A DNA stretch of 64,000 bases from Opitutia bacterium (GCA_947478395.1 CANJVR010000001.1:863754-927753); one strand, 5' to 3'; positions 3,558-47,294 are shown, numbered from the stretch's first letter. Notes: a model not told the origin generated them from the sequence alone. Translations and numbers: made by a program.

Positions 3558-4628
3558 ATGAAAATTGTCTGCCGATATCTGCTCCCGCTGCTGGTCGTTT
3601 CCCTTTCGGTCTTCGCTCAAGCCCCTGCCCCATCGGTTCCGCCGACTCCGGCCGGCGCACCAGCTGCTCCCGCTGCCGCCGGGGCGCGTCGAGGTCAGCG
3701 GACACCGTCCAATCCCAAGAATGACGCGCTCTACAAACTCGGGCCCGACTCGAAGCCGATGGACGGCGTGCCGAAGGGCAAATTCAGCGAAGCCAAGCAC
3801 ATTGAGTCGCAGGTTTTTCCCGGCACGCAGCACACGTATTACGTCTACGTCCCGGCGCAGTACGATCCATCGAAGCCCGCGGCGTTGATGATCTTCAACG
3901 ACGGTCAGGCTATGATGAAGGAGCCCGGCAGCGTCATGGGGCACAACGTCCTAGATAACCTGATTTATCGCCGCGAAATTCCCGTGATGATCGGCGTGTT
4001 CATCAATCCCGGCCGGCGGCCCGATCAGCCCGAACCGCCTGAGCCCGGCGGCGGCTGGGGCGATGCCACCACCAATCGTCCGACGGAATACAACACGCCC
4101 GACGACAAGTACGCGCGCGTCATGGTCGAGGAACTGATGCCCGCGCTAAAAAAGGAATATAACCTTTCACCCGATCCGGAACTGCACGGCATCATGGGCG
4201 CGAGTTCCGGCGGCATCGCGGCGTTCAGCACCGCGTGGTTTCGTCCGAACGATTTCCGCAAGGTCATCACGATCGTCGGCAGCTTCGTCGATCTTCGCGG
4301 CGGCTACGTTTTCCCCGAGTTCGTGGCGGAAAGCGAAAAGAAGCCGATCCGGATTTTCATGCAGGACGGGCGCAACGATAACCGGAATCTCACCGACCCG
4401 AAGCGCGACTGGTTTTTTCAAAATGTCCGCCTAATGCGGGCGCTCACCGCGAAAGGTTACGAGGTGAACTACACGTGGGGATTGAACAACCACGGCCAGA
4501 GCCAGGGCGGCGTGATTTTTCCGGAAATGATGCGCTGGCTGTGGCGCGATCTGCCGGTGTCGACGGATCCCAACGATATGGTCGAGCGGGCGTTGTTGGA
4601 GCCAGCCCCCGCGGCGGCCAAGCCGTAG
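3558..4628 (+). CDS. Secreted Fes/enterochelin esterase-like alpha/beta hydrolase
   Basis: Signal peptide [36 protein letters not shown] and the nucleophile elbow GASSGG; catalytic His region NNHGQ. Confidence 0.85.
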
Positions 4629-4658
4629 ACTTGCGGATCGTGGTCTGCAGCCCCGCCC

Positions 4659-4767
4659 TAGAGCGGTTTAAGTTTTTCCGCGGCCGTTTTGGGTAGCGCA
4701 GGCGTCTCTGCCTGCCGGGTTCGCGTCCTCGTTTCGGCAGGCAGGGACGCCTGCCGCTACGTCGTTA
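4659..4767. repeat. MITE/REPIN-like element, copy 1 (one end missing)
   Basis: Begins TAGAGCGGTTTAAGTTTTTCCG and contains two inverted GTAG-type palindromes (GTAGCGCAGGCGTCTCTGCCTGCCG / CGGCAGGCAGGGACGCCTGCCGCTAC). It is a reverse-complement match to 20124-20258. Confidence 0.8.
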
Positions 4768-4809
4768 GCAGCTGTGCATCTTAGACCGCGCTGATCGCGG
4801 CGCCGCCGC

Positions 4810-6255
4810 TCAAGCCAGGATTTCGCTGAGGCCTTCGGTCGTGCCGCTGAAGTTTTCCTGCCGGACACCCATCGAATCCATCATCGTCATGAACAGACGA
4901 TTCATCGGCGTACCGGTCGGATACGCGAGGTGACGCCCGGTCTTGAGACGCCCACCGCCGTGGCCAAACACCACCGTCGGCAGATTCGAGTGCGCGTGCG
5001 TGTTACCTTCGCTGATACCACTGCCATAGATCACCATTGAGTGATCAAGCAGCGAGCCGTCGCCATCGGGCGTGTTTTTCAACTTGTCGATGAAGTAGGT
5101 AAACAGCTTCGCGTGGTAGCAGTTGATCTGCGTCACCTTTTCGATGAACACCGGATTGTTGCGGTGATGCGTCAGCGGGTGATGTGAATCCGGCACGCCG
5201 ATTTCCGGATAGGTGCGCAAGCTGCCCTCGCGACCGATCATCAGCGTCATCACGCGCGTGAGATCGCCCTGCCAGGCCATAACCTGCAAATCGAACATCA
5301 GTTTAAGGTGATCGGCGAACTGCACGGGAATGCCCGCGGGCTTGTCGATGTCAGGCGCCGCCTGCGACTGCTCGCGCTCGGCGGCCTGGATGCGCTTCTC
5401 GATTTCGCGCACGCCGTAGAGATACTCGTCGACCTTGCGTTTGTCCGCCGCGCCCAGCGTGCCCATGAGCCCACGCGCGCGTTCGCCGACGACGTCGAGG
5501 ATGCTGTTGCGATACTGCGCACGGCGCAGACGAACCTGCGGGTCCATCGCGAAATCTTCCGTACCGAAGAGGCGTTCGAAGACCATGCGCGGATTCGTCT
5601 CGGGCGGGAGCGGCGAACTCGGGTTCCGCCAGCAGATCGTGTTGTTGTAAACGCAGCTGTAACCGCCATCGCAGTTGCCCACCGAGCGCGTGTCGTCGCA
5701 GCTCAACTCCAAGGACGGCAAGCGGGTCTTGCCACTCATGGCCGCGGCGACGATCTGATCGACCGACGTCCCCGACTGCACATCCATGCCGATCGTTTTC
5801 TTCGGCTTAACGCCCGTAAGATAAAGCGAGCCGGCCGTCGCGTGTCCGCCCGGATTGCCGGGGATCAACGGCGCATCTTCCCCGGCTTTCCCGGCCGCGG
5901 GTTTCGCGGGAGGCGGCACTGCGATGACCGCATCCGGGTCGGCATCGCGCGGCGGGCGGGGGATTTCATGACCGAGGCCCGAGAGCACCATCAGGTCTTT
6001 GCGGTACGCTTCAAACGGTTTGAGAATGCGGGTAAACTCAAACGACTCGCCCTGGGTCGCGGGGAGCCACGAATCCATCGTCACGCCGTTCGGAATATAC
6101 GCGAAGGCCAGGCGGTTCGGCGCCTTGACCGCCGCGACCTGCGCGCCCCGGGCCATCGCGGGCAACATCGCATCGAGCATCGGCAGGGCCAAGGCGGCGC
6201 CGACTCCCTTCAAAAAGGTGCGACGCTCCAGGTGTTTTTTGGTGATGACGTTCAT
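4810..6255 (-). CDS. DUF1552 (HXXSHH) domain protein, Tat-exported
   Basis: ERRTFLKG twin-arginine signal; PNG, SVDQ, NPRMVFERLFG, SILD, HHPLTHH and DGSLLDHS...GNTH motifs. Confidence 0.92.
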   Translation of the reverse strand: MNVITKKHLERRTFLKGVGAALALPMLDAMLPAMARGAQVAAVKAPNRLAFAYIPNGVTMDSWLPATQGESFEFTRILKPFEAYRKDLMVLSGLGHEIPRPPRDADPDAVIAVPPPAKPAAGKAGEDAPLIPGNPGGHATAGSLYLTGVKPKKTIGMDVQSGTSVDQIVAAAMSGKTRLPSLELSCDDTRSVGNCDGGYSCVYNNTICWRNPSSPLPPETNPRMVFERLFGTEDFAMDPQVRLRRAQYRNSILDVVGERARGLMGTLGAADKRKVDEYLYGVREIEKRIQAAEREQSQAAPDIDKPAGIPVQFADHLKLMFDLQVMAWQGDLTRVMTLMIGREGSLRTYPEIGVPDSHHPLTHHRNNPVFIEKVTQINCYHAKLFTYFIDKLKNTPDGDGSLLDHSMVIYGSGISEGNTHAHSNLPTVVFGHGGGRLKTGRHLAYPTGTPMNRLFMTMMDSMGVRQENFSGTTEGLSEILA

Positions 6256-8945
6256 GATTTTTCCTTCGTGCGATTTTGAAACGGCAGACTGTTGACGATC
6301 TCGATGACCAGCGCCGAAAAGCGGTAGTCGTTTTTTTCCACCCGGTTCGTGACTTCCTTCAACGTCGGCCGGTCATACGACTCGAGTCCGCGGCCCAGGG
6401 CGTAGGTGAGCATTTTATCGGCGAGACACGTGGCGAAATCCCGGCGGTCCGCTTTCAGAATATCCCGCAACTCAGCCGGCCCGCTGAATGAGCGTCCATC
6501 GGGCAACTTCCCGGAAGCGTCGATCGCCAGCTTGCCGTCCTGCGTACGCCACGCGCCGATCGCGTTGAAATTTTCCAAACCGACACCGAGCGGATCCATG
6601 CGCACGTGGCAGCTCGCGCACACCGGATTCTTGCGGTGCATCGAGAGCTGGTCGCGCAGCGAGGCCTCGGGGTTATTCTTCATCGTGGCCTCGAGCGCCG
6701 GGACGTTGTCCGGCGGGGCCGGCGGCGGCGCGTTGAGGATGTTTTCGAGAATCCATTTGCCACGCAGCACCGGAGACGTGCGCGTCGCGTAAGAGGAAAC
6801 GGTCAGCACGCTCGCTTGCGTGATCACACCACCGCGCGGGGTGCCGGTGAGATCAACCTTGCGAAACTCGGTCCCCTTCACGCCCGGGATACCGTAGAAA
6901 CCGGCGAGCCGCTCGTTGAGGAAGGAATAGTTCGCATCGATAAATTCCAAAATGCTCCGGTCGTCGCGTACGATATGATCGAAGAACATTTCCGTTTCCT
7001 GCAGCATCGACATCCGCAGATACGCATCGAAGTCGGGAAACTGGTTAAAGTCCGGCGTCACCGATTCCATCTTTCGAATTTGCAGCCACTGGCCGGCAAA
7101 GTTTTGGGCCAGCGCCATCGACTTCGGATCCTGCAGCATCCGCCGAACCTGCTTTTCGAGGAGCTCCGGCTTCCCGAGTTGCCGGCCATCGGCGGCGGCC
7201 AGCAGCTCGTCATCGGGCATCGAGCTCCAGAGGAAATACGAGAGCCGCGTTGCCAGCTCATGCTGATTGATCGGAGTTTCCGCGCGACCGGCGGGTGGAT
7301 CGCGCTCGATCCGATAAAGAAAATCCGGCGAGACGAGCACCGCCTGCAGCGCCACAACCAGGCCCTCCTCGAAGGAGTCGCCGGCTTTGCGCACCATGTC
7401 GTACAGGCCGACATATTTTTGAATTTCCTCGGGCAAGACCGCCCGGCGGAAAGCGCGGTGCACAAAACGCGTAATGACCTCGTTCGCCGCGCCCGGAGAG
7501 GTGCGATTGAAATTCTTAGCCCCAAAGATTTTCGCCACGCTCTCGGCGCTCGCGCCCTGCGTCTGTTTGTACGGTCCGACGATATCGACGTAATCGATGC
7601 CGATCTGCGCATCGATCGGGGCGAGGCCGTTACCCCGGCCACCGCCACCGCGTCCTCCCCGTCCGCCGCGTCGGCCCGCGCCGGCAGCATTCGGTTGACC
7701 GGCCGCCGCGGGGTCGGCTGCGGCCACGGCGTCACCGGCGAGCGCGGGGGCCGGAGCAGCAGGCGCGGGCGCGGGCGTGGCCGGAGCCGCCGGGAGCTCA
7801 ACTACCGCCACCGGAGCGGCCGCGGCCCCAGCCGGAGCTTGCTGCGCGACGGCGGGCACAGGAACGACGCCGGGGCCTTCCACGGGTTGAGGGGGCGGAT
7901 TACGTTTAGAGGGATTCAGGCCTTTGTAGATCGGCGGCAGACCTTCAAACATCCGCAGCACCGTAGCCGCGACCCAGTGATCGCCCGCGGGAACAAACAT
8001 CCGGTATTCCTGCGGCTTGCCGAACAAATCCTGGCGGCCGCCAAGCAAAGAAGGGCCGTCTTCCTTGGGATCGACCTGAAGCTCGGTCACGAGTTTGCCG
8101 TCGAGCCACAAGCCCAGCTCCAGCGGATTGGAGCCAAGCGGACGAAAGCCGCGCGACGTAACGCGGAAAAGATATTCGCCATCGACCGGGAAACGATGAA
8201 CCGCATGCAACGAGCGATCGTTGTTGAGGCCAGTCACATCATAATCCTTGGGGATCTCGGTGCGGTTGAGAACATCGCGCTCGACCTGTTCGAGTTTCTT
8301 CGTCGCCGGATGCAAAACCTCCGGGCCATAAATCGCGGTGCGCGCGGCCCGCTCGGCCGCGATCATGTATTTCTCCATCAGCACGGGCGACATCGTGAGC
8401 GAGTCCGCGATGTTATCGAAGCCGTGCGACGCGTCATCCTGCGGAAAATCGTCGGCCGGCCACAGCTTGATGCCGAGCAAATCCTGAATGGTGTTGTTAT
8501 ACTCAACGCGGTTCAGCCGGCGGGCCGTCACGCGCCCGGCGAGCGGTTGAATGGCGTCGTCCGCGCGGACGAACTCACCGCGAATCCACGCGACGGCCGC
8601 GCGACGCTCCTCGGTCGTCGGCATGGGGACTCCTCCTGGCGGAATGGATTTTGCCGGCAGATCGGTCGGGGGCATTTCCCCGGTCTCGATCATCTCCATG
8701 AAATGTTTCCAGTCCTCCCGGTGTTCGCTGAGCGAGGCCAGGCTGCTGTACGACGCGAGATTTACATCCCCCAATTGCCGGTCGGGGCCGTGACAGACGT
8801 AGCAGTTTTTGCTCAGGAAAGGTTTGAGCTGGTTGTTGAAGGCCGCCTCGGCCGCAGCGTTGGCCTGCGCGGGCATGGCGGGGACAAACACAACACTGAA
8901 AACCGCAGCGGCAATCGCCGCGAGCCTGGGGTCTAGGCTATGCAT
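6252..8945 (-). CDS. DUF1592/DUF1588 family di-heme cytochrome c protein (PSCyt1-PSD2-PSD5-PSD4-PSCyt3-PSD3 type)
   Basis: CYVCH; RRLNRVEYNNTIQDL; LATRLSYFLWSSMPD; TSPVLRGKWILENIL; CASCH; LTYALGR. Overlaps the DUF1552 gene by 4 nt. Confidence 0.92.
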   Translation of the reverse strand: MHSLDPRLAAIAAAVFSVVFVPAMPAQANAAAEAAFNNQLKPFLSKNCYVCHGPDRQLGDVNLASYSSLASLSEHREDWKHFMEMIETGEMPPTDLPAKSIPPGGVPMPTTEERRAAVAWIRGEFVRADDAIQPLAGRVTARRLNRVEYNNTIQDLLGIKLWPADDFPQDDASHGFDNIADSLTMSPVLMEKYMIAAERAARTAIYGPEVLHPATKKLEQVERDVLNRTEIPKDYDVTGLNNDRSLHAVHRFPVDGEYLFRVTSRGFRPLGSNPLELGLWLDGKLVTELQVDPKEDGPSLLGGRQDLFGKPQEYRMFVPAGDHWVAATVLRMFEGLPPIYKGLNPSKRNPPPQPVEGPGVVPVPAVAQQAPAGAAAAPVAVVELPAAPATPAPAPAAPAPALAGDAVAAADPAAAGQPNAAGAGRRGGRGGRGGGGRGNGLAPIDAQIGIDYVDIVGPYKQTQGASAESVAKIFGAKNFNRTSPGAANEVITRFVHRAFRRAVLPEEIQKYVGLYDMVRKAGDSFEEGLVVALQAVLVSPDFLYRIERDPPAGRAETPINQHELATRLSYFLWSSMPDDELLAAADGRQLGKPELLEKQVRRMLQDPKSMALAQNFAGQWLQIRKMESVTPDFNQFPDFDAYLRMSMLQETEMFFDHIVRDDRSILEFIDANYSFLNERLAGFYGIPGVKGTEFRKVDLTGTPRGGVITQASVLTVSSYATRTSPVLRGKWILENILNAPPPAPPDNVPALEATMKNNPEASLRDQLSMHRKNPVCASCHVRMDPLGVGLENFNAIGAWRTQDGKLAIDASGKLPDGRSFSGPAELRDILKADRRDFATCLADKMLTYALGRGLESYDRPTLKEVTNRVEKNDYRFSALVIEIVNSLPFQNRTKEKS

Positions 8946-17823: not shown

Positions 17824-18459
17824 TCAGTTTCCCCGTCGCTCCTCTGCTTTAGGCGCGGTCGTTGGCGAAACATCCGGGCCGGGCACAAAAAAATAGATGA
17901 CCGCCATCGTCGCGGCGGTGCCGACGACCAAAAAGGCGATGCCGAGCTGCCGGCGCCGCGGCAACGCGAGCCAGAGAATGAAGCCGGTGAGGCACGCAAG
18001 GACGATCAAGGCCGCGCTGAAATCGATGACCCACCGCCAGGCCGGACCGGTGTAGCGACCGCGATGGAGATTATTGATGATCGCGATCAATCCGTACTGC
18101 TCGTTATGCGCGGCGACCCGCCCCGTGGATTTAGTCACGGTGATGTCCCAGATTTGTCCCGGCTCCTTGAACGCGATCGCGTACTCGTCGTCGATGTCCG
18201 CGAAATTGGCCATGGCGCCGTGGATGCCCAGCGTCTGCCGCAGGTGCTCGACGATCCGCAGATTGTCGTGACTCGCGATCAAGGCCGGCGGGACTTGTCC
18301 GGTGTGTTCGGTCACGCGCGGCGGCGCGGAGTCGAGCAGGCCTTCATGATTGATCGTGAAGCCCGTGACGCTGAACAGCAGCATCACCAGCAGGCCAAGC
18401 ATCGTCAGATAAATATGCACGGCGCGACAGGCCGCGAGGAGGGTCTTGTTAATGTTCAC
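17824..18459 (-). CDS. PepSY-associated TM helix domain protein
   Basis: RAVHIYLTM...FSVTGFTINH and NNLHRGRYTGPAWRWVIDFSA...LTGFILW, with three TM segments. GTG start 3 nt after the ApbE-DUF2271 stop. Confidence 0.88.
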   Translation of the reverse strand: MNINKTLLAACRAVHIYLTMLGLLVMLLFSVTGFTINHEGLLDSAPPRVTEHTGQVPPALIASHDNLRIVEHLRQTLGIHGAMANFADIDDEYAIAFKEPGQIWDITVTKSTGRVAAHNEQYGLIAIINNLHRGRYTGPAWRWVIDFSAALIVLACLTGFILWLALPRRRQLGIAFLVVGTAATMAVIYFFVPGPDVSPTTAPKAEERRGN

Positions 18460-20123: not shown

Positions 20124-20258
20124 GGGCGGTTTAACCAAAAGCGTAGCGCGTAACGACGCAGCGGCAGGCGTCCCTGCCTGCCGAAACGAGAACGCCGAAC
20201 CCGGCAGGCAGGACGCCTGCTGCTACCCAAAACAGCCACGGAAAAACTTAAACCGCTC
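20124..20258. repeat. MITE/REPIN-like element, copy 2 (both ends present)
   Basis: Ends GGGCGGTTTAACCAAAAG ... GGAAAAACTTAAACCGCTC (terminal inverted repeat) enclose an inverted pair of GCAGGCGTCCCTGCCTGC palindromes. Confidence 0.85.
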
Positions 20259-34300: not shown

Positions 34301-35097
34301 TGCTCGCCGCCGACAAAGTCGCGCCCGCCGTGCAACTCGAACTCCTCGAAGCCGCCGCAAAACGCGAAAACCCTGAAGTCAAAAAACTCCTCACCGCCCG
34401 CGAGGTCACGATGGCGGGCAGTGGCGATGCCTTGGCCCCCTACCGTTTCGCCCTGCAAGGCGGCGACCGCGAAAAAGGCCAGCGCATCTTTGAGAATCAA
34501 CCCACGCTCGCCTGCGTGCGCTGCCACCGCGTCGGTGCGGCTGCCGGCGGCGATGGCGCTCCTAACCTCGTCGATTTCGCGACCAAACATCCCGAGGCGA
34601 CGCGCGAATACGCCCTCGAGTCCATCGTAAAGCCCAACGCCAAGATTGCCGCCGGCTTCGAAACCATCGCCCTCACGCGCAAATCCGGTGGCGTGGTCGC
34701 CGGTATCGTCGCCAGCGAGACGCCCGAAGCGATTTCTCTCCGCGATATCGAAGGCAAAATCGTCGAAGTGAAAAAGGCCGACATCGCTAAACGCGACAGC
34801 GCCCCTTCGGCCATGCCGGAAATCTACGGCGTCATTCTCACCAAGGCCGAGCTGCGCGACGTCGTCGAGTACGTCAGCACCATCGGCGCTCCGCCTCCCG
34901 GCAGTCGAGGTGGACGTGGCGGCCGCGGAGCCGTCGCGAATGCCGGTGGGGCTGCACCCGCCGCCGGCGCGGGCCGCGGCGGGGCCCGCGGCGGTGGCGG
35001 TCAGGGCGGCGTTCCACCCCTGCGCGCCCTGCGCGGCCTCCATTCCGCTGATCCGGCCAGCACCGAAGCGGCGCAGCCACCCTCGGAGCACCCGTAA
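31351..35097 (+). CDS. PVC-type membrane-bound dehydrogenase-like propeller + HEAT repeats + heme c domain
   Basis: WAAEPMLANPVAFNIDERGRVFV, HDLHGPTWGPDG and GLRNP propeller blades; HEAT-like repeats; CVRCH...ESIVKPNAKIAAGF...SAMPE. Confidence 0.88.
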   Translation: MKLRPVFCAPLAVLALAQPLSRAADVAPAPAAGPAASTPYHLLINPAPGLRKATPVINAASDEAVNALQRIKPAAGLEVKLWAAEPMLANPVAFNIDERGRVFVAETYRYRSSTLDIRHYLWMDQEDLASRTIEDRLDMLQRNFGPEGVKELSVESEIIRLVEDTKGAGVADRSSVYADGFNSPLDGIASGIMVRRGEVWFTDIPSIWKMTGEQKAETRTEISRGYGVHFSLTGHDLHGPTWGPDGKIYFSFGDRGASVKTKEGITLNTPDNGAVYRMNPDGTQLEIFADGLRNPQSLLFTENGDMVIGDNDSDGPDEERLVHAVEGGESGWRIGYQRSPLAPTEQKGPWSAEKMWLPRWEGQAAFLLPPICNIEDGNSGVAYYPGTGLNSSYFGQIFICHFKGAQARSGINTYLVKPKGSSYEIADSKVFVSSVLPTDVRFGPDGKVYLSDWTDGYDQPKKGRIYTISDPQHLNDPLVKETQQLLGGDWTKRSSDELAKLLGHADWRVRLEAQFTLAERGASSIPVLTRVASAPAPAAVELGNPANLPAYARRHAIWGLGQIAQKTGNALTLSSIIARPADQLSLKDSAALTPLRALVHDADSEVRAQTLKTLGEHGQVDQADNFMAALKDENNRVKFQAALALGKVSALQPELAGRATAALFDALRANNDVDLYLRHAAVMGLVGTKNIAALAAASADSSRAVRTGALLALRRLERPEAAKFLSDSDPYLVREAALAINDRPINAAMPALAALLNQGTTDEAVLYRAINANFRLGGAANAAALAQYAANPAAPQKFRLEALAQLALWPNPPQRDRILGIYRPLAAEAPNATATTSRDGKPAVDALAPVIPALLDPASPAPVQTAAINAIEKLHIPAAADALFTVVRDPKQSDANRASALTALGAFNDSRLLEAVKMASAAESAVLRLAALPIAAKLSPNDAAPVLANFVSKGDAQEQKVAFETLGTLKHPSADAIFVEQLKLLAADKVAPAVQLELLEAAAKRENPEVKKLLTAREVTMAGSGDALAPYRFALQGGDREKGQRIFENQPTLACVRCHRVGAAAGGDGAPNLVDFATKHPEATREYALESIVKPNAKIAAGFETIALTRKSGGVVAGIVASETPEAISLRDIEGKIVEVKKADIAKRDSAPSAMPEIYGVILTKAELRDVVEYVSTIGAPPPGSRGGRGGRGAVANAGGAAPAAGAGRGGARGGGGQGGVPPLRALRGLHSADPASTEAAQPPSEHP

Positions 35098-38395: not shown

Positions 38396-38409
38396 CGCGA
38401 ATGGCTTTG

Positions 38410-38473
38410 GAGCGGTTTAACCAAAAGCGTGGCCGCTACACAATAGGGCCACGGAAAAACTTAAACCGCTCTA
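38410..38473. repeat. MITE-like element, copy 3 (internally collapsed)
   Basis: GAGCGGTTTAACCAAAAGCGT ... GCCACGGAAAAACTTAAACCGCTCTA: the same ends as 20124-20258, without the internal palindromes. Confidence 0.85.
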
Positions 38474-39994
38474 CGATTTCACCGGGCCGTAAGTAATCAC
38501 GGACGCTTCCGATTCCCCCGTGGGATGAATCGCGGCCGTCACCGGCTCCGCTCCACACTTCACCTCGATCCGCTCAAAGACATGGTAACCATGCTCGCGG
38601 CAGATTTCCACGCCCACGGTGTAGGTGTCCATGGGCAGGCGCCGACCGAAATCGTCGAGACCGTCCCACACGACGTTGTAAGTCCCCGCCACCCGCGTGG
38701 CCCTCGAGGGCACCTTCGCCTCAAACGTTGTCGCCGCCGGTAGATTCCACCAAGTCGTGAGTTTCCTCTGCCACCGGTCGTCACTACCCCACACCGTCAC
38801 GGTGCGCACGACCTGGCCTTTCGCATTTTGAATCCAAACGGCCGCGTACGGGCGATGGGCGCCCCGCCCGCCCCCTTGATTTTTGAGCACAACCTGCACG
38901 TTCATCTGAAAATCCGCCGGCCAGCCGGGACCGGCCGGCGCCGCAACGTACTTGGCGGGACCCGTTGGCGCGGGTGCGGGACTGGCGGACGGGGCGGCGG
39001 CACCCGCCGCCGTAGCCGCCAGCGTGCTGGCGCTGGAGACGATGCCTGTCTCGTTCGCAAAAACATAGCCGGCCGCGCCGTGAACCCGGGCCAGATCCTC
39101 GGCGACGTCAGGGCCACCGATGGTAGCCGCCGTCGCCAGTGCGTTGGCGGTCACGCTATCCGCGGCCACGAAGCTCGCGCTCCGATCCGATTCGATCGCC
39201 CAGCCCGAGCGCGGGTCGATCAGATGCGAATATTTTTTCCCATCGATCTGATAAAATCTCGCATAGCCGCCGCTCGTCGCCACCGCCGCTTCGCGCAAAG
39301 CGAAGCATGCGATCGGCGCTGCGTTGTCCGCCGGATTGCGGGGATCCGCCACGCCTACGGTCCATGTGGTATCACCCCACGCTCGCAGATCGCCGCCAAG
39401 GTTCAGCACCCCCGAGGGAGCCACCCGGCGCGCCACCGCCACTGCCCGATCGATAATGTAGCCCTTGCCCAAAGCATCGATTTTGAATGCCCGCTCTTGT
39501 CGTGCGGCGTGCATGAGCGCGGCGGACTCCGGCAGGCGGTTGGCGGTTTGCGCCGCGCTCCAGAGGTCGACGACCCCACCCAAGTTAATCTCGATGAGAC
39601 CGTCCGTCGCGATCGACCAGTGTTTGTAAGCCGCGAGTAATTCCGTGAGCTCGGCCGAAACGACGGGCGCACCCGCCATGACCCGGCTGATTTCGCTCGA
39701 GGGATCGTATGGGCTCAAGATCCGCCGCAAGCGCTCGATCTCAGCGAGGATCCGCGTTTCACATTCCATCGCGTCCGCGGGCCGGTGCGCCTCGACGATA
39801 AGATCGAGCGAAGTACCGAGAACATTTTCGTAGCCACGGGAGAATCGGTCTAATTTTGCGAGGCGGAGAATCGCCGGATCCGAAAGATTGACCCCAGGCC
39901 GGGCGACCAGGAGATCGCCGGCACCCAATGTCACAAAACCGGCGGCGGCTCCGCTGATCCATCGTTTCGAGCGCTGGAGACGATTTTTTTTCAT
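38471..39994 (-). CDS. apbE: ApbE FAD:protein FMN transferase fused to DUF2271 (paralog 2)
   Basis: VLGTS, DALGKGY, GGDL, VATSGGYAR and HLIDPRSG; RPYAAVWIQ...WDGLDDFG...CREHG. Confidence 0.88.
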   Translation of the reverse strand: MKKNRLQRSKRWISGAAAGFVTLGAGDLLVARPGVNLSDPAILRLAKLDRFSRGYENVLGTSLDLIVEAHRPADAMECETRILAEIERLRRILSPYDPSSEISRVMAGAPVVSAELTELLAAYKHWSIATDGLIEINLGGVVDLWSAAQTANRLPESAALMHAARQERAFKIDALGKGYIIDRAVAVARRVAPSGVLNLGGDLRAWGDTTWTVGVADPRNPADNAAPIACFALREAAVATSGGYARFYQIDGKKYSHLIDPRSGWAIESDRSASFVAADSVTANALATAATIGGPDVAEDLARVHGAAGYVFANETGIVSSASTLAATAAGAAAPSASPAPAPTGPAKYVAAPAGPGWPADFQMNVQVVLKNQGGGRGAHRPYAAVWIQNAKGQVVRTVTVWGSDDRWQRKLTTWWNLPAATTFEAKVPSRATRVAGTYNVVWDGLDDFGRRLPMDTYTVGVEICREHGYHVFERIEVKCGAEPVTAAIHPTGESEASVITYGPVKS

Positions 39995-40199: not shown

Positions 40200-41411
40200 A
40201 TGAAAGCATCCCCCTCGCTCAGGCTCGTCCTCGTGGCGGCCGTCTCCCTGCTCAGTCGAAGCCCCGTTCTGGCGCAGCCCGCCAGCAACGCCAACGGCAC
40301 CCGCCAAGTCGTCTCGCCGGATATCGATGCCGAAGGCAAGGTCACCTTCCGCTTGTACGCGCCCAACGTGAAGCAGGTCACGATGACCGACGACTTCGTC
40401 CCCACGAGTGGCACGCTCAAAAAAGACGAAGCAACCGGCATCTGGTCCCTCACCACCGCGGCGGCGATACCGCCCGGGGTCTATGGATATTATTTCAGCA
40501 TCGACGGCATCCGCTCGATCGATCCCAGCAACCTTAACGCGTTTGGCGGCGGCCGCTACCTGAAGAGCTACTTCGAGGTGAAGGGCGACGGGCAGGAATT
40601 CTGGGCCCAGCGCAACGTCCCCCACGGCATGCTGCACGAGGTGCTGTATGAAAACCCTACGCTCGGTTCACGTCGCGTGCTGGTCTACACGCCACCGGGC
40701 TACAACGCGGCGGAAAATAAAACTTATCCAGCGGTGTACCTCTATTCCGGTTCGGGCGACAACGAGACGTATTGGAGCCGCATCGGCCGCGCGCACTTCA
40801 TCATGGATAATCTAATCGCCGAGGGGAAAGCGAAGCCCGCGATCGTCGTGATGCCTTACGGCTCGGCCGTGCTCCCGGCGCCGGGCGATGGACAGGAAGA
40901 CACGGCGGACGGCGTGTATGGCGTGAAGGCGATCGAGAAAGATGTCGTCGGTAGCGTCATCCCCACGATCGAGAAAAACTTCAAGGTCGGCAAAGAGCCG
41001 AAAGATCGCGCGATCTTCGGTTTCTCGATGGGTGGATATCTCGCGCCAACGATCGGGCTAAATCATCCGGAAGTATTCGGCTGGGTCGTCGGCGCATCGA
41101 CCGCCGGATTCCGGGGCGCAGGCACGCCCGATAAAAACTTCAAACCGCTCGAGGCGCAGCTCGAACTCGCGAAGAAGAATTTCAAGTTCGTCGGTTTCAC
41201 GGTCGGCACGGGCAGCGACAACGGTGGCACCGCGGGCAACAAGGCCGCGGTGGATTATCTCACGGGCCTCGGCCTCAAGGTCGAATGGACGCAACCTCCC
41301 GGCGGGATGCATGCCTGGTCCAGCTGGCGCGGTTATTTTCGCGATGTGATGGCCCACAAATTCTTCGTCGAAAATCCCTACGCCGCGCCGAAGATCGGCC
41401 TGCCGAAATGA
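40200..41411 (+). CDS. Secreted esterase with N-terminal Ig-like (E-set/CBM48-like) domain, CE1-like
   Basis: Signal peptide; VTFRLYAP, VPHG, VYTPPGY, IMDNLIA, GFSMGG and GMHAW. Confidence 0.88.
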   Translation: MKASPSLRLVLVAAVSLLSRSPVLAQPASNANGTRQVVSPDIDAEGKVTFRLYAPNVKQVTMTDDFVPTSGTLKKDEATGIWSLTTAAAIPPGVYGYYFSIDGIRSIDPSNLNAFGGGRYLKSYFEVKGDGQEFWAQRNVPHGMLHEVLYENPTLGSRRVLVYTPPGYNAAENKTYPAVYLYSGSGDNETYWSRIGRAHFIMDNLIAEGKAKPAIVVMPYGSAVLPAPGDGQEDTADGVYGVKAIEKDVVGSVIPTIEKNFKVGKEPKDRAIFGFSMGGYLAPTIGLNHPEVFGWVVGASTAGFRGAGTPDKNFKPLEAQLELAKKNFKFVGFTVGTGSDNGGTAGNKAAVDYLTGLGLKVEWTQPPGGMHAWSSWRGYFRDVMAHKFFVENPYAAPKIGLPK

Positions 41412-41495: not shown

Positions 41496-42674
41496 TTACT
41501 TTTGCGGTTGGTAATCTTTCCACACCCACTCCAACGCTTCAGGCAAAAGTTGGCCGCGGGCGGCGCCCATGCTGTGGCCGACACCCATCGCGAAGACGTA
41601 TTGATAACGATAGCCTTTAGCTGCGAGCACCGTCGCCATGCGGTTGTTGGCTTCGACCCAGTCATGCATGTCGTCGCGCATAACATTGGGATTGAGGAGA
41701 TCCTGATCGCCCACGCCCATCCAGAGCCGGATCGGCTTCTTCGGGCTCTGCGGGATCAGCGTGGTATGAAAATCCCAAGCTCCGCCAGGAGTCGCGGGAT
41801 CGAACGGCCACTGTTGATTTACGTAAGTGCCCGAGGTCGTAATAACGCGGCGATAAAGCTCGGGGTGATACCACGCCATGATCAAGGCGGCTGAGCCGCC
41901 CGAACTGTTGCCCATCGTAGCGCGGGCCTCGGGGTCCTTGCTGAGCGTCACGCCATAGTTTTTTTCCACGAGCGGGAGCACCTCGGCCTCGATAAATTCG
42001 GCGAACTTGCCCGACATCGTGTCGTACTCACGTCCGCGCTCGTGGCCCTGCGCGTCGCCGCCACCGTGGGCGACCATGATGGCGATTTGGACGGGCACGC
42101 GCTTTTGGGCGATGAGATTGTCGAGCACGCGCGCCAGTTCCTGACGCGGTGCATCGGCTCGGGCCAGGCCCGGGCCGTCGTGCGTGACGATAAAAGGGGC
42201 GGGCGTGCCGGGTTTGTATTGCGCCGGGATATACACGGTAATCGTGCGCGTGTAGTCCATCGGGAAGGTTTCAACGATGACCGTCCGGGGATTCTTGGGA
42301 TCGACCGTTCCGAAGGGCACCTCGCGTTTGATGCCGGGGTTGTAGAATTTGCTGTCCTTCGAGCTCATGCTGAACTGCTGGACTTTTCCCTGGGGCACGC
42401 CGTCGACCACTTTGGCTTCGGGCGCCGGCACATAATCAGGACCCACCAGAAAGTTTCCCACGGCATCCGCCGGAGGATTGATGCCTTTCTCGAGCTTGGT
42501 GAATTTTGGATAACCGGGAGTGTCAGGCGCACGTTTCGGTACCGGCGGACGAGCGGCGGCCGGCGCAGCGGGAGCGGCCGGCGGCGTGTCGGCGCACTGA
42601 GCCGAAAGCGGAAACAGCGCGGCGAGCGCGCTGCCCGACAAAAATGCAAGGCGACGGGAGGTGGTTTTTTTCAT
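41496..42674 (-). CDS. Secreted Fes/enterochelin esterase-like alpha/beta hydrolase
   Basis: VYIPAQY, RGREYD, GNSSGG, SGTYVNQQWP and VGH; a clear paralog of 16593-17723. Confidence 0.85.
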   Translation of the reverse strand: MKKTTSRRLAFLSGSALAALFPLSAQCADTPPAAPAAPAAARPPVPKRAPDTPGYPKFTKLEKGINPPADAVGNFLVGPDYVPAPEAKVVDGVPQGKVQQFSMSSKDSKFYNPGIKREVPFGTVDPKNPRTVIVETFPMDYTRTITVYIPAQYKPGTPAPFIVTHDGPGLARADAPRQELARVLDNLIAQKRVPVQIAIMVAHGGGDAQGHERGREYDTMSGKFAEFIEAEVLPLVEKNYGVTLSKDPEARATMGNSSGGSAALIMAWYHPELYRRVITTSGTYVNQQWPFDPATPGGAWDFHTTLIPQSPKKPIRLWMGVGDQDLLNPNVMRDDMHDWVEANNRMATVLAAKGYRYQYVFAMGVGHSMGAARGQLLPEALEWVWKDYQPQK

Positions 42675-42756: not shown

Positions 42757-44100
42757 TCAGATGCGCGCGAGCGGCGCGGAGGCGTCGCCGAACTTGTCGA
42801 GCTTCACGCCCATGCGATCCATCAGCGACAGGTACAGGCTGCAGAGTTTGCGGTTGTCGTTACCCGCGTCGGTGTAGTCGAGCACGCGCCCCGTTTCCAA
42901 CGTGCCGCCCAGTGAGCCGGCCGTGAGCAACGGCACCTTGCTGCTATCGTGATTCTTGCCGGACCACATGTTCGACATGAATACGATGCAGGAATTATCG
43001 AGCACCGTGCCGTTGCCTTCCTTCATGTTGGCGAGCTTCTCGGCGAGGTAGGCGAATTGGCTCACGTAATATTTATTGATGCGCATGAACGCGTCGTCGT
43101 CCTCGTGGCTGGCGAGATGGTGCGCGAGCTTGGCGTCGAGGAACGGGTAAACGAGGCCGGAGATGTCGCGGCAGAGCAGCAAGGTCGCAATGCGGGTCTT
43201 ATCGGTCTGGAATCCCAGCGCGAGAATGTCGCACATCAGGCGCATGTGCTCGCGGATGTCTTCCGGCAGGCCGTTTTCCGGACGCCGCATCGTGATGACG
43301 GGCTGGTCAGCGCCTTTGCCCTTGGCATCCGCTTTGTCCTTCGCCGCGCGCATGCTTTGCGCGCGTTTTTCCACTTCGCGCACGCTGGTGAAATACTCGT
43401 CGATCTTCGCCTTGTCAGCGGCACTGACCTGCCGTCCCAGCGTGGCGGCCTGGTCGCGCACGCGATCGAGTACGCTCTGGTTGCGCTGATCACCGCGGTT
43501 GTCGAAGAGGCTGTCGAAAGCCAGTGACGGATAAACTTCCATCGGGACGGGCGAGGTCGGCGTCTGCCACGAAATGTGGGAGCTATACGCCATGGAGAAA
43601 TTCGTCTCGTGATAACCCGTCACCGGCTGCTCGCAGCCCAAGACCATGCTCGACTGCACGGTCTGTTCTCCGATGCGGTTGGCCAGCACTTGATCCATGC
43701 TCACGCCGCCATGGAGTTCCGCGCCCTTCGTCAGCGGCGCGCCGGAAAGCAAGTTCCCCGTCATGCCGGGGTGAATACCCACGCCGACGGCCGCCTTGTT
43801 GTAGAGCCCCTTGACGAAATTGATTTTCGTCTTCACCGGCTCGAGCGGAGAAAGGCTTTCGCCCAGTTGGATGTCTGCTCCCGCACCACTGGCGGTCCAG
43901 TATTTCTGGTTGATGCCGTTCCCCATGAACATCACGGCGAGCCGCTTGGGCGGAAGCGCCGGCGTATCAGACTTTGTCATGGTCTCCGCGCCCCAGACGG
44001 GCACCGACTCAAGCCACGGCAACGCCATGACTACGCCGGCTCCATGCAGAAACCGACGGCGGGAAAAAGAGTGACGATTGCCGCGGATGAAATGGCTCAT
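42757..44100 (-). CDS. DUF1552 domain protein, Tat-exported
   Basis: SRRRFLHG; GIHPGMTGN; GYHETNFSMAYSSHISW; HHLASHE. Confidence 0.92.
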   Translation of the reverse strand: MSHFIRGNRHSFSRRRFLHGAGVVMALPWLESVPVWGAETMTKSDTPALPPKRLAVMFMGNGINQKYWTASGAGADIQLGESLSPLEPVKTKINFVKGLYNKAAVGVGIHPGMTGNLLSGAPLTKGAELHGGVSMDQVLANRIGEQTVQSSMVLGCEQPVTGYHETNFSMAYSSHISWQTPTSPVPMEVYPSLAFDSLFDNRGDQRNQSVLDRVRDQAATLGRQVSAADKAKIDEYFTSVREVEKRAQSMRAAKDKADAKGKGADQPVITMRRPENGLPEDIREHMRLMCDILALGFQTDKTRIATLLLCRDISGLVYPFLDAKLAHHLASHEDDDAFMRINKYYVSQFAYLAEKLANMKEGNGTVLDNSCIVFMSNMWSGKNHDSSKVPLLTAGSLGGTLETGRVLDYTDAGNDNRKLCSLYLSLMDRMGVKLDKFGDASAPLARI

Positions 44101-47100
44101 GGGATTAGGGCGAGTTTTTCGGAGTCGGATGAAACGCGTTTATTAAGAAACTGCCGGCTGGTGACGATCTCCTCGACGATGGTGCCGAAGTGGTAACCGC
44201 TGGTGGAAAGTTTTTGGCGCACGTCCGCCACGACGAGATCGTCGGAGGGCAGGAGGCTGCGGCCGAGGGCGTAGACCATGAGCTTGCGACAAAGATTGTC
44301 CAGAAACTCATGCTCCACCTTGGTGTGAAAATAGGTCCGCAATCCGTCCAAGCCCACGCCTTCGCTGCCATCGGGAAAGACCGCGCTGGTCTCCGCCGGA
44401 CGGCCCGCCAGATCCGTCGTGCGCACTTCGCCCACCGGCCCAAAGCCCTCGAAGACGAGGCCCATCGCGTCAAATTTGTTGTGACAGCTGGCGCAGGACT
44501 TATCCGCGCGGTGCTTGGCGAGAGTTTGCCTTAAGGTGAGGTCACCGAGCTTGGTTTCATCGGTCGGCAGTACGGGCACGTTCGGCGGCGGCGCGGGAAT
44601 GCGTTCGCCAAGCAACTTCGTGACGACCCAGTGTCCACGCTTCACTGGACTCGTGCGGAGTCCCGGCGCGTTTTTCGTCAGGAAGGCCGCCATCGGCAGG
44701 AGGCCGCCGCGGTGAAACTTATTCGCCTCGTCGACGCGAACCCAGTTGTTCCCGCCCGTGATCGAAACCGGAATGCCGTAATGTTTAGCCAGGATCGGAT
44801 TCACGAACGTGTAATCGCCGTAGACGAAATCCAAGACGGAGCCATTGCGCTGCGCGAGATCGGTGATGAAGCGAACCGGTTCCTCGAACATCGCCTCGCG
44901 TAGATCGTTCGTGAAGGCGGGAAACCGTTCGCGATCGACGGCGTTGTGCTCCTCGAACCGGCGAACATCGAGCCAATTGCCGCCGAACTCCGTGGCCAGC
45001 CCGCGGACCTTGGCGTCCTTCAACATGCGCCGCGTCTGGGCGATGAGCACCTCACGCTGGTGTAAATCGCCCGCCGCGGCATGGGCGAGCAATTCGCCGT
45101 CGGGCATGCTGGACCAGAGGAAGTAGCTCAACCGGTTCGCTAGTTCGAAATCGGACAGCGACTGCACGGCGGCCGTCGGATTCGATCCGTTCAGCTTCGG
45201 CAAATCGTAGCGATAGGAAAACGCCGGCGACATCAGCACGCTGACCACGCAATCGCGGATCGCGTCTTCGTGACTGAGCTTCTGCTCGCGCAACTGACCG
45301 TAGAATTTCAGCAAGTCTTCGCGTTCAAAGGCCGTGAGCGGACGGCGCGCCGCGCGCTCGGCAAACGCAACAAGTGATTTCAGGTGCAGCGGCTCGGCCG
45401 CCTTCTGCGCCTTTTCCAAGGCCCGAATCCGGGTGTTCATGTTCACGAAATAATCGCGGATCGCCTTCAAGGTTCGCTCGTCGAGTTTGAATTCCTTGAA
45501 ACCCTCCGGGATCGGGTCGTTCGCCGCCAGCATCGTGGCCCGGTAATTCAATGCGATGCCAGTGTTGCGGGGTTGTAAGGCGACGCGCGTTCTCGCGGCT
45601 TGATTGTAATAAACTTCGGCAAACCGTTTCAGCTTCGACTCCGTCAAGAGGCTGTCGTCCGCCGACCGAAAATCGGCAAACACCGGATTGAGCATGAAGC
45701 TCGGAGGTTCGGCGGTCTCAAACCAGACAAAGCCAGTCATCTGACGGAAAGGCGCTTTCGTCGTGAAATTGAATTCATCCCAGAGCCGGTCGAGTTCGCG
45801 CTGTTGATCGGAATCGAGAACGAGATCGTAGAGCGGCTTGTCGTCGCGGAAATAGCCCGTCTGGCTGTGGAAGCCGGCGGTGAGCAGACGGTGACCTTCG
45901 AGGTCGGTCTGAATATTACGTTCATTCGAGATAAACATGCGGGCGCGCTCCGCCACGTAGAAAGCGTCCGGGAAAATGGCGCAGAATTGCCGGAATCCCG
46001 CCTGATATTTTTCCCGGTCGACTGCTTCGACTGGGATCGCGAGTGCCGGATCCGTTTGGGAAAACTTCGCCAAATCGATTTCCAGCGCGTTTCCCGCGTA
46101 CACGTTTCGATTCAGCGCAATCTGTTCGTCTTTCCACAGCACCATGGTCTGCGAACCGGCGGCCACGATGTGGTCGGTTGCCACGAGATTTGCAAAACGC
46201 ATCCCCACCAGCGGGCGCACCGCCATGATAAAATCCCGCAACGCCACCACCTGGGCACGCACGTCTTCCGGTTGCTTGCCGGCCATGGGGACCGGCAGCT
46301 TTTTCCAGCGCGCCTGAATCGCGGCGATCGGGCCCAGCGATCCCTCGGGCTGGTTCAACGCGGCCCACAGTGTGGCCAGATATTTAGGACTGACCTTGGC
46401 GTCCTGGGCGACACTCGCCAGCGACGCATTGGGACGACCGAGCGCGGCGCGATGCTGGTACCGCCATGCGGCCTCAAAGAAATTCGCGTAGTCCAAGTGT
46501 TCCGCGGTGTAATTATCGAAGCGCGTGGAAATATTCACGCCTTGGCGCCGGTAAAAATCGACGATCCGGTTAACGGCGTACTTGTCGCGGTCCTCGTCGG
46601 TGTTCGCCGGGTAAGGGGCAAACGTAAAGCTGGTCGGCGTGAAAACGATGTGATCGGCGACCGCGCGCGCGGCATCGAGGTACTTCTTCACCAGCGCGGG
46701 CGACATCGAGAGCGATTCACCGGAGTTGTCGAAGCCCGCGGCATTCGCCGGATCGACCGGAAATTCTTTCGTCGGCTGAATCGGCACGCCCGTGAGATCG
46801 CGCACGGTGTAATCGAACTCGGCGTTGCTCAACCGCCGCGCGAGCACGAGCCCCGGATCGCCGGCCGTGCGCTTTGTTTCGGCCGCGCGCATTTCCTGCA
46901 ACCACGCGACCACGGGACGGGTTTGCTCGATGGTGGGATGTTTCTTCGCGTCATCCGGCGGCATTTCCTTCGCCTCGATGCGCTCCAGGACTTCGTTCCA
47001 GCGCCGGACGTCCTTCGTGATCGATGCCAGCGTGGTGTAGGTGCTCAGGTCGAATTCGGCCTCGGGTTTGGCTCCGCCGTGGCAACTGACGCAGTACGTC

Positions 47101-47294
47101 TGGATAAAGGGATGAATCGTGTTCTGAAACCCCGCTTCCAATTTTTGGCCGGAGAGTTGCGCCACGGGGGCCGCGGCGACCGCCGACGACGGCTGCTCGG
47201 ACGCGGCGTTCGGCGTCGAACAGGCGGACCAAAATAGGGGCAGAGCCGAAAGCGCCAGCGGCGCGAGGACCAAGGTGGGGAAACGTTTTTGCAT
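44097..47294 (-). CDS. Long-form DUF1592/DUF1588 di-heme cytochrome c protein, possible lipoprotein
   Basis: FWSAC lipobox-like site; CVSCH; LANRLSYFLWSSMPD; TSPVKRG; CASCH. Overlaps the DUF1552 gene by 4 nt. Confidence 0.92.
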   Translation of the reverse strand: MQKRFPTLVLAPLALSALPLFWSACSTPNAASEQPSSAVAAAPVAQLSGQKLEAGFQNTIHPFIQTYCVSCHGGAKPEAEFDLSTYTTLASITKDVRRWNEVLERIEAKEMPPDDAKKHPTIEQTRPVVAWLQEMRAAETKRTAGDPGLVLARRLSNAEFDYTVRDLTGVPIQPTKEFPVDPANAAGFDNSGESLSMSPALVKKYLDAARAVADHIVFTPTSFTFAPYPANTDEDRDKYAVNRIVDFYRRQGVNISTRFDNYTAEHLDYANFFEAAWRYQHRAALGRPNASLASVAQDAKVSPKYLATLWAALNQPEGSLGPIAAIQARWKKLPVPMAGKQPEDVRAQVVALRDFIMAVRPLVGMRFANLVATDHIVAAGSQTMVLWKDEQIALNRNVYAGNALEIDLAKFSQTDPALAIPVEAVDREKYQAGFRQFCAIFPDAFYVAERARMFISNERNIQTDLEGHRLLTAGFHSQTGYFRDDKPLYDLVLDSDQQRELDRLWDEFNFTTKAPFRQMTGFVWFETAEPPSFMLNPVFADFRSADDSLLTESKLKRFAEVYYNQAARTRVALQPRNTGIALNYRATMLAANDPIPEGFKEFKLDERTLKAIRDYFVNMNTRIRALEKAQKAAEPLHLKSLVAFAERAARRPLTAFEREDLLKFYGQLREQKLSHEDAIRDCVVSVLMSPAFSYRYDLPKLNGSNPTAAVQSLSDFELANRLSYFLWSSMPDGELLAHAAAGDLHQREVLIAQTRRMLKDAKVRGLATEFGGNWLDVRRFEEHNAVDRERFPAFTNDLREAMFEEPVRFITDLAQRNGSVLDFVYGDYTFVNPILAKHYGIPVSITGGNNWVRVDEANKFHRGGLLPMAAFLTKNAPGLRTSPVKRGHWVVTKLLGERIPAPPPNVPVLPTDETKLGDLTLRQTLAKHRADKSCASCHNKFDAMGLVFEGFGPVGEVRTTDLAGRPAETSAVFPDGSEGVGLDGLRTYFHTKVEHEFLDNLCRKLMVYALGRSLLPSDDLVVADVRQKLSTSGYHFGTIVEEIVTSRQFLNKRVSSDSEKLALIP

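Follow-up and report, generated by a model that had tools for sequence, protein, structure and literature searches.

DUF1592-DUF1552 gene pairs beside a separate flavin cassette in a probable carbohydrate-use island of an Opitutia bacterium

In freshwater Verrucomicrobia, PSCyt3 genes adjoin DUF1552 genes in many copies, and He et al. 2017 (PMC5615132) considered a possible role of the pair on small sugars in the periplasm. Proteins of the type X183-DUF1587-X132 include Cbp2D of Cellvibrio japonicus and TERTU_2913/3803 of Teredinibacter (PMC8981238, PMC10916295, PMC12542752). Branch 2021 gives Cbp2D as CBM2-X158-FN3-X183-DUF1587-X132 and its X183 as a measured electron-transfer cytochrome (+193 mV) able to reduce lytic polysaccharide monooxygenases, and the supplement includes planctomycete and Roseimicrobium [X183][X132] proteins and a [CBM26]x4[X183][X132] protein of Pseudoalteromonas Bsw20308. 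X132 is described as lacking a characterised homologue, with models that put its heme near X183 (PMC10916295), and cbp2D is important for the growth of Cellvibrio on insoluble cellulose (PMC12542752). A sister module, DUF1501 with PSCyt2/PSD1, was described by Kamneva et al. 2012 (PMC3542564), who suggested that it hands electrons on to sugars or proteins. We analysed 64,000 nucleotides of an Opitutia bacterium (863754-927753 of contig C1 of a 3.31-Mb genome, G000, 98.8% complete; hereafter the window), which carry four pairs of a DUF1592-type cytochrome gene and a DUF1552 gene, together with esterase genes and a flavin cassette. A homologue of DUF1552d with 87% identity is assigned to Opitutaceae, and the source is most likely a member of this family of Verrucomicrobiota.

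We hold with moderate confidence that the window is a carbohydrate-use island in which the pair is a periplasmic electron-transfer unit of two hemes and a single metal, the flavin cassette being separate from it. This cassette, ApbE-DUF2271 with PepSY-TM, is itself a published one, and it stands beside the pairs in this island only.

The DUF1592-DUF1552 pair as a two-gene unit

A Pfam scan of the window found four DUF1592-type proteins, four DUF1552 proteins, two ApbE-DUF2271 fusions, one PepSY-TM protein and five PF00756 esterases. It confirmed what a preliminary description of the window had noticed: four pairs, all on the minus strand and in identical order, two of them (a and d) overlapping by 4 nt; the intergenic gaps of pairs b and c are 46 and 5 nt. 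All four DUF1592 proteins combine PSCyt3 with PSD4, PSD2, PSD3 and PSD5, each above the Pfam cut-off, in the order PSCyt1-PSD3-PSD5-PSD4-PSCyt3-PSD2. The genome has 23 DUF1552 genes, every one of which adjoins a DUF1592 gene (23/23), and the window holds four of these 23 pairs. DUF1552 is upstream of DUF1592 in three pairs (C1:105538-110072, C2:391027-395432 and C4:249309-253292), and in one (L232) a gene of 672 aa with no Pfam family lies between DUF1552 and DUF1592. Because the genome has 23 pairs, their clustering is only borderline unusual: at least four fell within 43 kb in 271 of 5000 random placements (about 5%).

In both trees a long-form clade of five, with 100/99 support, takes in pairs b, c and d, while pair a falls in another clade. 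The preliminary description had recorded the two genes as pairs and suggested paralogue trees as a check; these trees are largely congruent (Mantel rho 0.83 for 21 of the 23 pairs, a value reached by 0 of 2000 permutations), which supports a co-evolving exported unit of two genes. Such co-divergence, as judged from sequence, is expected if the whole unit was duplicated, and it does not prove physical contact. No DUF1592-DUF1552 fusion occurs among 51 long homologues (lengths of 1571-4485 were searched, and a fusion of about 1300-1500 aa would fall outside this range). DUF1552 is present in 173 of 400 sampled genomes of the family and has 11,848 representatives at an expect value (E) of 0.001; the viral contigs searched for the family gave no match. 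In two sister pairs elsewhere in the genome (L230:1857-3299 and L231:7703-9187), an ankyrin-repeat gene lies directly downstream of DUF1552.

A search with the C-terminal half of DUF1592d led to a starch-binding protein of Pseudoalteromonas Bsw20308 (E 5e-30, 29%, 84% covered) whose domains are CBM26, GSDH, cytochrome c and PSD3/5/4/PSCyt3/PSD2, and whose gene is followed, after 16 bp, by a twin-arginine (Tat) DUF1552 with all four of the histidines described below. From the strain and the domains we infer that this is the protein listed as [CBM26]x4[X183][X132]. Since that X183-X132 protein carries PSD and PSCyt3 domains and matches DUF1592d, X132 would correspond to PSD5-PSD4-PSCyt3-PSD2. 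The carbohydrate context supposed for the pairs is supported by the carbohydrate-binding and sugar-dehydrogenase domains of such homologues, and the middle regions of three of the 23 DUF1592 paralogues match CBM60, two of them above the cut-off.

Two CxxCH motifs are present in 23/23 of the genome's DUF1592 paralogues. A Met-Pro-Pro lies 42-45 residues past the first motif in 22/23, and a His six residues before the second in 23/23. This pattern suggests His/Met ligation of heme 1 and His/His ligation of heme 2, both six-coordinate, and the predicted ligands are consistent with electron transfer, as was proposed when DUF1592 was called a heme wire; cytochrome c assembly genes are present in the genome. 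The model of DUF1592c (64 alignment rows; predicted local distance difference test, pLDDT, 86.8; predicted template modelling score, pTM, 0.84) is almost all helical, and Foldseek returned no match to it. Its best fold match in a wide comparison, the cytochrome c peroxidase YhjA (86 residues, Z 9.2, root-mean-square deviation, rmsd, 2.1), lies within the range usual for helical models and covers less than a tenth of its length. In the PDB, neither the C-terminal nor the full-length DUF1592 profile had a significant sequence match; the N-terminal profile found generic class I cytochromes only (45 matches, 7B21, the X183 structure, not among them). The insert of the long-form clade of b, c and d (380-520 aa) has no Pfam family of its own and is helical in the model of c; a search of the ESM Atlas with it returned PSD3/PSD5 fragments only.

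The model of mature DUF1552d (86-row alignment; pLDDT 87.2, pTM 0.89) was placed by Foldseek and VIA-align in the alkaline-phosphatase/sulfatase superfamily (Foldseek probability 1.0; best Z 16.2, rmsd 3.5, 258 aligned residues, 11% identity). The top matches are sulfatases, ectonucleotide pyrophosphatase/phosphodiesterases and phosphoethanolamine transferases, with Z between 12.7 and 16.2 across the top 50 rows. DUF1552 is thus predicted to have the core alpha/beta fold of this superfamily. The literature on these families, in a search that left subscription journals mostly outside its scope, assigned no fold to DUF1552, and a sequence search of the PDB with the DUF1552 profile gave no significant match.

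Among 102 full-length, diverse DUF1552 representatives, His110 is conserved in 98% and His328, His332 and His384 in 100%, and 97/102 have the twin-arginine (RR) motif. All 23 paralogues of the genome have His at position 110 and a single one lacks His328. The C/S-x-P-x-R nucleophile motif of formylglycine sulfatases is absent, its nucleophile position being His in 98% of the 102 representatives and in 23/23 paralogues. In the DUF1552d model His110 precedes a helix; the glycine of LL[T/S]G follows it after ten residues, the distance that also separates this glycine from the CxPxR cysteine in sulfatases encoded by the same genome. Two-metal enzymes of the alkaline phosphatase/NPP (nucleotide pyrophosphatase/phosphodiesterase) type use Asp ligands for the second metal and a Ser or Thr nucleophile. 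By comparison with alkaline phosphatase and sulfatase structures, the places of the second-metal aspartates would be positions 61 and 377 of DUF1552, which are Asn or variable, in a register that comes from a weak profile alignment. We infer that DUF1552 carries one histidine-bound metal and no canonical nucleophile, the geometry of the site being putative. The suggestion that the Tat-exported DUF1552 is the catalytic subunit stands as regards a predicted enzyme fold, a conserved histidine cluster and the Tat motif, while its chemistry stays a proposal.

In the mechanism we propose, DUF1592 would be exported by its signal peptide, both of its hemes serving as electron carriers, and DUF1552 would be exported folded through Tat with one His-bound metal and would dock on the C-terminal half of DUF1592. 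Electrons would pass between the DUF1552 metal and the DUF1592 hemes, in either direction, from or to the oxidation of sugars or of other small molecules that polysaccharide degradation yields. The paralogues would differ by their inserts (CBM60-like or helical) and by accessory neighbours (esterase, ankyrin or propeller cytochrome). More tentatively, DUF1552 could be the first redox metalloenzyme on an alkaline-phosphatase scaffold, with a four-His single-metal site in which one histidine takes the place of the nucleophile, and with a dedicated di-heme partner of the X183-X132 type, and the pairs a widespread, unrecognised oxidative arm of bacterial carbohydrate use; if this is true, DUF1552 would be the missing partner that explains the inactivity of isolated X183/X132 domains. 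The four conserved histidines offer exact residues for mutation in a large family with no assigned function, and the X183-X132 link points to a genetically tractable host, Cellvibrio.

Several observations weigh against the electron-transfer reading and the separateness of the cassette. The alkaline-phosphatase fold is a hydrolase/transferase fold that is not known to include a redox enzyme; because of this, the redox role of DUF1552 rests on its partner and its histidines. The alignment of DUF1552 to sulfatases by hhalign is weak (probability 5.7%, E 0.007). The density of PSCyt genes was found to be inversely correlated with that of glycoside hydrolases (He et al. 2017, PMC5615132). For many of the 19 pairs outside the window, the adjoining genes are housekeeping or unrelated ones, and the ApbE-DUF2271 fusion is commoner in DUF1552-rich genomes (18/51 versus 7/122, counts that lack phylogenetic independence).

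An unlikely alternative makes DUF1552 a metal-dependent hydrolase or group transferase, with His110 as a possible nucleophile, and DUF1592 its redox-sensing or maturing partner rather than a wire, for which MauG and SoxAX are analogues. Every top fold match of DUF1552 is indeed a hydrolase or transferase, its HxxSH resembles the DxxxH zinc ligands of alkaline phosphatase, hydrolases are often neighbours of the pairs, and the best fold match of DUF1592 is a peroxidase, YhjA (Z 9.2). This match, however, covers less than a tenth of DUF1592, each heme has a potential sixth ligand, in contrast to a peroxidatic heme, and the presumed positions of the second-metal aspartates (61 and 377) are not conserved.

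The flavin cassette, the esterases and the propeller cytochrome

The preliminary description had joined the pairs to the flavin genes in two blocks: Block A, with a Fes-like esterase, PepSY-TM, an ApbE-DUF2271 fusion, two pairs and an immunoglobulin (Ig)-capped esterase, and Block B, with a fusion, an Ig-capped esterase, a Fes-like esterase and one pair. The neighbourhood analysis that it suggested was carried out from both sides. The cassette side comprised 74 ApbE/DUF2271 loci, mostly fusions (1.11 Mb), 39 of them from the family and 35 from a genome-wide scan; the latter are chiefly from Planctomycetota and Verrucomicrobiota. Several loci of the tally end at contig edges and some share a genome. 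Another 43 weak loci (L104-L146), whose short matches fall for the most part in the C-terminal Ig-like stretch, were excluded. PepSY-TM is present in 64 of the 74 and DUF1592/DUF1552 in one, and 14 more stand-alone DUF2271 loci have no DUF1592/DUF1552, so that the cassette lies beside a pair in 1/88 cassette loci of other genomes (74 + 14), the sole case being genome G108. The flanks of the cassette elsewhere (43 of 83 called neighbours were scanned) are mostly housekeeping or family-less genes, among them PrmA, formyl transferase, Sua5 and EF-hand proteins, and 9/34 fusion-bearing genomes have no DUF1552 match.

On the pair side, 0/80 metagenome long-form DUF1552 loci, 38 of which were at least 9 kb long, have ApbE, DUF2271 or PepSY-TM. 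The long-form clade was found in 29/400 family genomes, and outside G108 the cassette accompanies 0/37 of its loci (40 of 43 places were examined and three partial matches left out). In three genomes of genus g52 (97-98% complete) the pair-d orthologues are 87-89% identical and there is no DUF2271 match. The other two long-form pairs of the source genome (on C8 and C4) have no ApbE-DUF2271 nearby because both fusions of the genome sit in the window.

G108 belongs to another genus, and its contig C19 corresponds to the window, gene by gene, between the BD-FAE esterase at about 53 kb and PepSY-TM at about 17.8 kb (55-87% identity), Block A included intact; there is no gene between its Ig-capped esterase and its MFS (major facilitator superfamily) transporter, the site of fusion 2 here. 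Because this sole co-location shares the entire carbohydrate island, it represents one shared island and not a recurring module, and the cassette arrangement of Block B is specific to the source genome. The co-occurrence of the families beyond the source genome thus failed for the cassette, being limited to one other genome with the shared island, and the idea that flavinylated DUF2271 and PepSY-TM link the pair to the membrane is not supported by the counts on either side (1/88; 0/80 and 0/37). Nor does the five-family set occur twice in full, Block B lacking PepSY-TM. The literature on the families and on the flavin system, with subscription journals mostly outside scope, yielded no link of ApbE/DUF2271 to DUF1592/DUF1552; the cluster table of Meheust 2021 may list such clusters.

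The frequency of the fusion among genomes leaves some room for an optional coupling in trans, in which the cassette is a general source of periplasmic reductant for the long-form pairs and the Block A order is kept as useful; on balance this seems improbable. The fusion occurs in 25/173 DUF1552-bearing genomes versus 9/227 without DUF1552, with the highest share in the DUF1552-rich genomes counted above (18/51), Block A is kept at 66-85% identity in two genera, and Meheust 2021 (PMC8238504) reports that flavin and cytochrome are interchangeable in such clusters. Yet the relatives are not independent, lifestyle explains the same pattern, and the fusion is missing from most pair-bearing genomes. 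The excess in DUF1552-rich genomes may reflect lifestyle or a loose link in trans. That in a few Opitutaceae the long-form branch also draws electrons from a self-flavinylating ApbE-DUF2271 with an Arg motif is a narrower version to which we attach little credence.

Very low credence remains for the reading of the preliminary description, by which the five families form a system of their own: flavinylated DUF2271 and PepSY-TM would connect the pair to the membrane, and the esterases would supply its substrate. Both fusions of the genome are at most 2.7 kb from a long-form pair, the genes of Block A have the same order in G108, of another genus, where about 125 bp precede ApbE, and the fusion is found in 12/29 family genomes with the long-form clade versus 22/371 without it. 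But seven of these 12 genomes are of one genus, and among genomes with at least 10 DUF1552 candidates, with genus g58 removed, the odds ratio is 1.0 (4/11 versus 8/22); G108 shares the whole island, which counts as one event, and lacks the Block B copy; the neighbours of the cassette elsewhere are housekeeping genes; and the canonical flavin acceptor motif [S/T]GA[S/T] is not in any DUF1592, DUF1552, esterase or PepSY-TM protein of the window. As an obligate system the five-family model is largely refuted by these results together with the locus counts. Had the five parts formed a flavin-wired system, two large unknown families would have gained a function; the neighbourhood tests point to a local arrangement, and the finding mostly returns two published modules side by side.

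Regarding the cassette itself, flavinylation has been shown for a stand-alone DUF2271 on the canonical motif, and an ApbE-DUF2271 fusion is mentioned (Meheust et al. 2021, PMC8238504); a review states that Gly-to-Ala in the acceptor motif cuts flavinylation to about half, and the Huang 2024 preprint treats PepSY-like cytochromes. The PepSY-TM protein of the window, 3 nt from fusion 1, is the sole match in the genome to the PepSY queries used, and fusion 2 has no PepSY-TM neighbour. Both fusions retain the ApbE core motifs and the acceptor Thr; their DUF2271 domains lack [S/T]GA[S/T] and have ARAT and SRAT instead. Arg replaces Gly in 32/49 fused DUF2271 domains with a readable motif, which bears on the breadth of ApbE specificity. 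Fusions of the Planctomycetes-Verrucomicrobia-Chlamydiae group mostly have [S/T]RA[T/S] or [A/S]RPT at this place (loci L031-L050 and L065-L103), self-flavinylation being putative. Genus g58 has a second DUF2271 gene, a stand-alone one, ahead of the fusion. Proteins of 695-744 aa and 120-126 aa with no Pfam family at E 1e-12 are encoded upstream of the cassette in genus g27 (L040, L043 and L046). Positions noted for these two observations together are L040:4961-5764, L043:8534-9316, L285, L286 and L287. EF-hand proteins lie directly upstream of a subgroup of ApbE-DUF2271 in three genomes (L035:11182-11709, L292:8842-9267 and L294:11161-11685).

The esterases, which had also been tied to the pairs, are nearer to them than chance in the source genome and optional across its relatives. 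Eight of the 18 PF00756-type esterases of the genome are within 2 kb of a pair, with 1.1 expected, and so are 4/13 of those outside the window, with 0.86 expected (p about 0.01, each gene of a cluster taken singly). The 41496-42674 esterase has an orthologue, in the same orientation as the pair, beside 9/25 pair-d-like loci, upstream or downstream, versus 1/67 other long-form loci; two of these nine loci appear identical in sequence, and the 72% identity boundary was set post hoc. Seen from the esterase, whose orthologues occur in 63/400 family genomes, 6/45 examined orthologues are near a pair (45 of 71 matches were examined), and the esterase as an obligate third gene was rejected on this count. 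The link is real but optional, and it fits a common carbohydrate context.

For the NCBIfam equivalog of the enterochelin esterase Fes, all five esterases of the window score 24-42 bits against a cut-off of 222, and on these scores an iron-siderophore (enterochelin) esterase was rejected. The 29801-30940 esterase matches the ferulic acid esterases 8bbp/6rzn (phmmer E 5e-58 over residues 17-375), and GFSMG (G-x-S-x-G) is present in both Ig-capped esterases, which resemble, in sequence, feruloyl esterases of the CE1 type with CBM48. We find it scarcely credible that the pair serves to capture, reduce or deliver periplasmic metal (Cu or Fe), with DUF1552 as a binding protein and the Fes-like esterases and cassette sharing in iron uptake: the predicted four-His site, the TonB-dependent receptor of the island, and the reports of the PepSY-like VciB as an iron reductase and of PepSY/DUF2271/ApbE clusters tied to iron (PMC8238504) would fit, but the esterases reach at most 42 of the 222 bits and match feruloyl esterases best, and the existence of 23 diverged copies, with carbohydrate-binding inserts, is more in keeping with varied substrates than with metal uptake.

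A DUF7133 protein with propeller, HEAT and cytochrome c domains is, by sequence, a weak candidate for the redox partner of the pairs, and a better one than the ApbE cassette. Its gene is kept syntenically in G108, P0270 joins a protein of this architecture to a DUF1592 module, and homologues occur in 5/80 and 2/41 long-form regions (7/121) versus 0/74 cassette loci. The link is weak because such genes can be many per genome; it nevertheless exceeds that of ApbE. Another DUF7133 homologue is found immediately outside the left end of the window, at a distance of 5.9 kb from pair a.

Layout of the window and comparison with known systems

Table 1. Principal genes of the window, numbered from its first nucleotide.
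Feature	Position	Strand	Remarks
DUF1592 protein a (short-form clade)	6252..8945	-	897 aa; signal peptide; two CxxCH; from Pfam, motifs and tree
DUF1552 protein a	4810..6255	-	481 aa; twin-arginine signal; PF07586 E 3.6e-92; about 29% identity to b, c and d
DUF1592 protein b (long-form clade)	21765..25235	-	1156 aa; two CxxCH
DUF1552 protein b	20282..21718	-	478 aa; twin-arginine signal; PF07586 E 9.2e-86
DUF1592 protein c (long-form)	26639..29665	-	1008 aa; model almost all-helical
DUF1552 protein c	25269..26633	-	454 aa; twin-arginine signal; PF07586 E 2.8e-83
DUF1592 protein d (long-form)	44097..47294	-	1065 aa; two CxxCH
DUF1552 protein d	42757..44100	-	447 aa; modelled alkaline-phosphatase/sulfatase fold; His110, His328, His332, His384
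Secreted Fes-like PF00756 esterase	41496..42674	-	co-oriented with and 82 bp downstream of DUF1552d
ApbE-DUF2271 fusion 1	18463..20001	-	512 aa; PF02424 E 3.3e-47; PF10029 E 8.2e-26; motif ARAT
PepSY-TM (PF16357)	17824..18459	-	211 aa; E 2.6e-38; 3 nt downstream of fusion 1
ApbE-DUF2271 fusion 2	38471..39994	-	507 aa; 56% identity to fusion 1; motif SRAT
CE1-type esterase with N-terminal CBM48/Ig domain	29801..30940	-	feruloyl-esterase-like; 135 bp upstream of DUF1592c
Second CE1/CBM48-type esterase	40200..41411	+	strand opposite to Block B
Secreted Fes-like esterase	3558..4628	+	convergent with pair a
Secreted Fes-like esterase	16593..17723	+	convergent with PepSY-TM
DUF7133 propeller-HEAT-cytochrome c protein	31351..35097	+	TIGR02604/TIGR02603; DUF7133 not named in the preliminary description

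The genes named for Blocks A and B are all present (Table 1); as single operons the blocks do not hold. Neither is one operon because three esterases (3558-4628, 16593-17723 and 40200-41411) are on the plus strand, where they converge on or diverge from neighbouring genes. A gap of 280 bp, which houses a genome-wide repeat, parts DUF1552b from fusion 1; the repeat is a REP-like (repetitive extragenic palindromic) inverted repeat at 20131-20250 (minus strand) with 221 blastn matches in the genome, one copy sitting just downstream of pair a. A promoter and terminator scan of 16-32 kb was not clearly above shuffles (4 versus 3.1, and 27 versus 18.8 with a standard deviation of 5.0), and one RNA run, with 8% of the words and 25 short contigs, was too sparse for co-expression.

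Further Pfam matches of the window are GH106, GH28, SASA and BD-FAE esterases, an MFS transporter, a MalK-type ATPase and a TonB-dependent receptor. The count of 11 CxxCH motifs given in the preliminary description is correct for open reading frames of at least 80 aa: eight are in the four DUF1592 proteins, one in the DUF7133 protein and two in a cytochrome at 13434-14201 (minus strand). The latter is a protein of 255 aa with a DUF1573 (Ig-like) domain, weak SoxX and OS_HP2 matches and no paralogue in the genome. Long open reading frames at 14879-15871, 850-1998 and 2084-3391 (plus strand, putatively so for the last two) have no Pfam or NCBIfam family. The gene at 59309-64000 (minus strand), which runs past the end of the window, encodes a large surface protein that combines FG-GAP repeats and Ig/FN3 domains with a C-terminal domain in repeated form.

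When the proteins of the pair are compared with known systems, DUF1552 shares a predicted fold with the enzymes of the alkaline phosphatase/sulfatase superfamily at an identity of just 8-13%; unlike sulfatases and phosphatases, it has no CxPxR/SxPxR, has His at the nucleophile position and probably does not conserve the second-metal aspartates. The DUF1501 module with PSCyt2/PSD1 is, like the pair, a Tat protein with a cytochrome partner in many copies, although the Pfam families differ; the DUF1501 and DUF1552 profiles align weakly (E 9e-5, probability 31%) with histidines at matching places, so that homology is suggestive only. The locus of fusion 1 agrees with the PepSY-like/DUF2271/ApbE system of Meheust 2021 in having PepSY-TM PF16357 next to ApbE and DUF2271; the two fusions differ from it by their acceptor motifs, ARAT and SRAT, and the window has no DUF4198 gene.

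Proteins of the Cbp2D type have the same succession of cytochrome c, DUF1587 and a C-terminal CxxCH domain as DUF1592, a likeness drawn via the Bsw20308 member; they are large, secreted, multidomain proteins with CBM2 or CBM26, modules that the DUF1592 proteins of the window lack. The Group III planctomycete-specific cytochrome pairs of He 2017 have the domains, the adjacency, the many copies per genome and the carbohydrate-binding inserts of the pairs in the source genome. There is no categorical difference between the two: pairs b, c and d form part of a long-form clade, and pair d has an optional esterase. The DUF1592-DUF1552 pair is already published.

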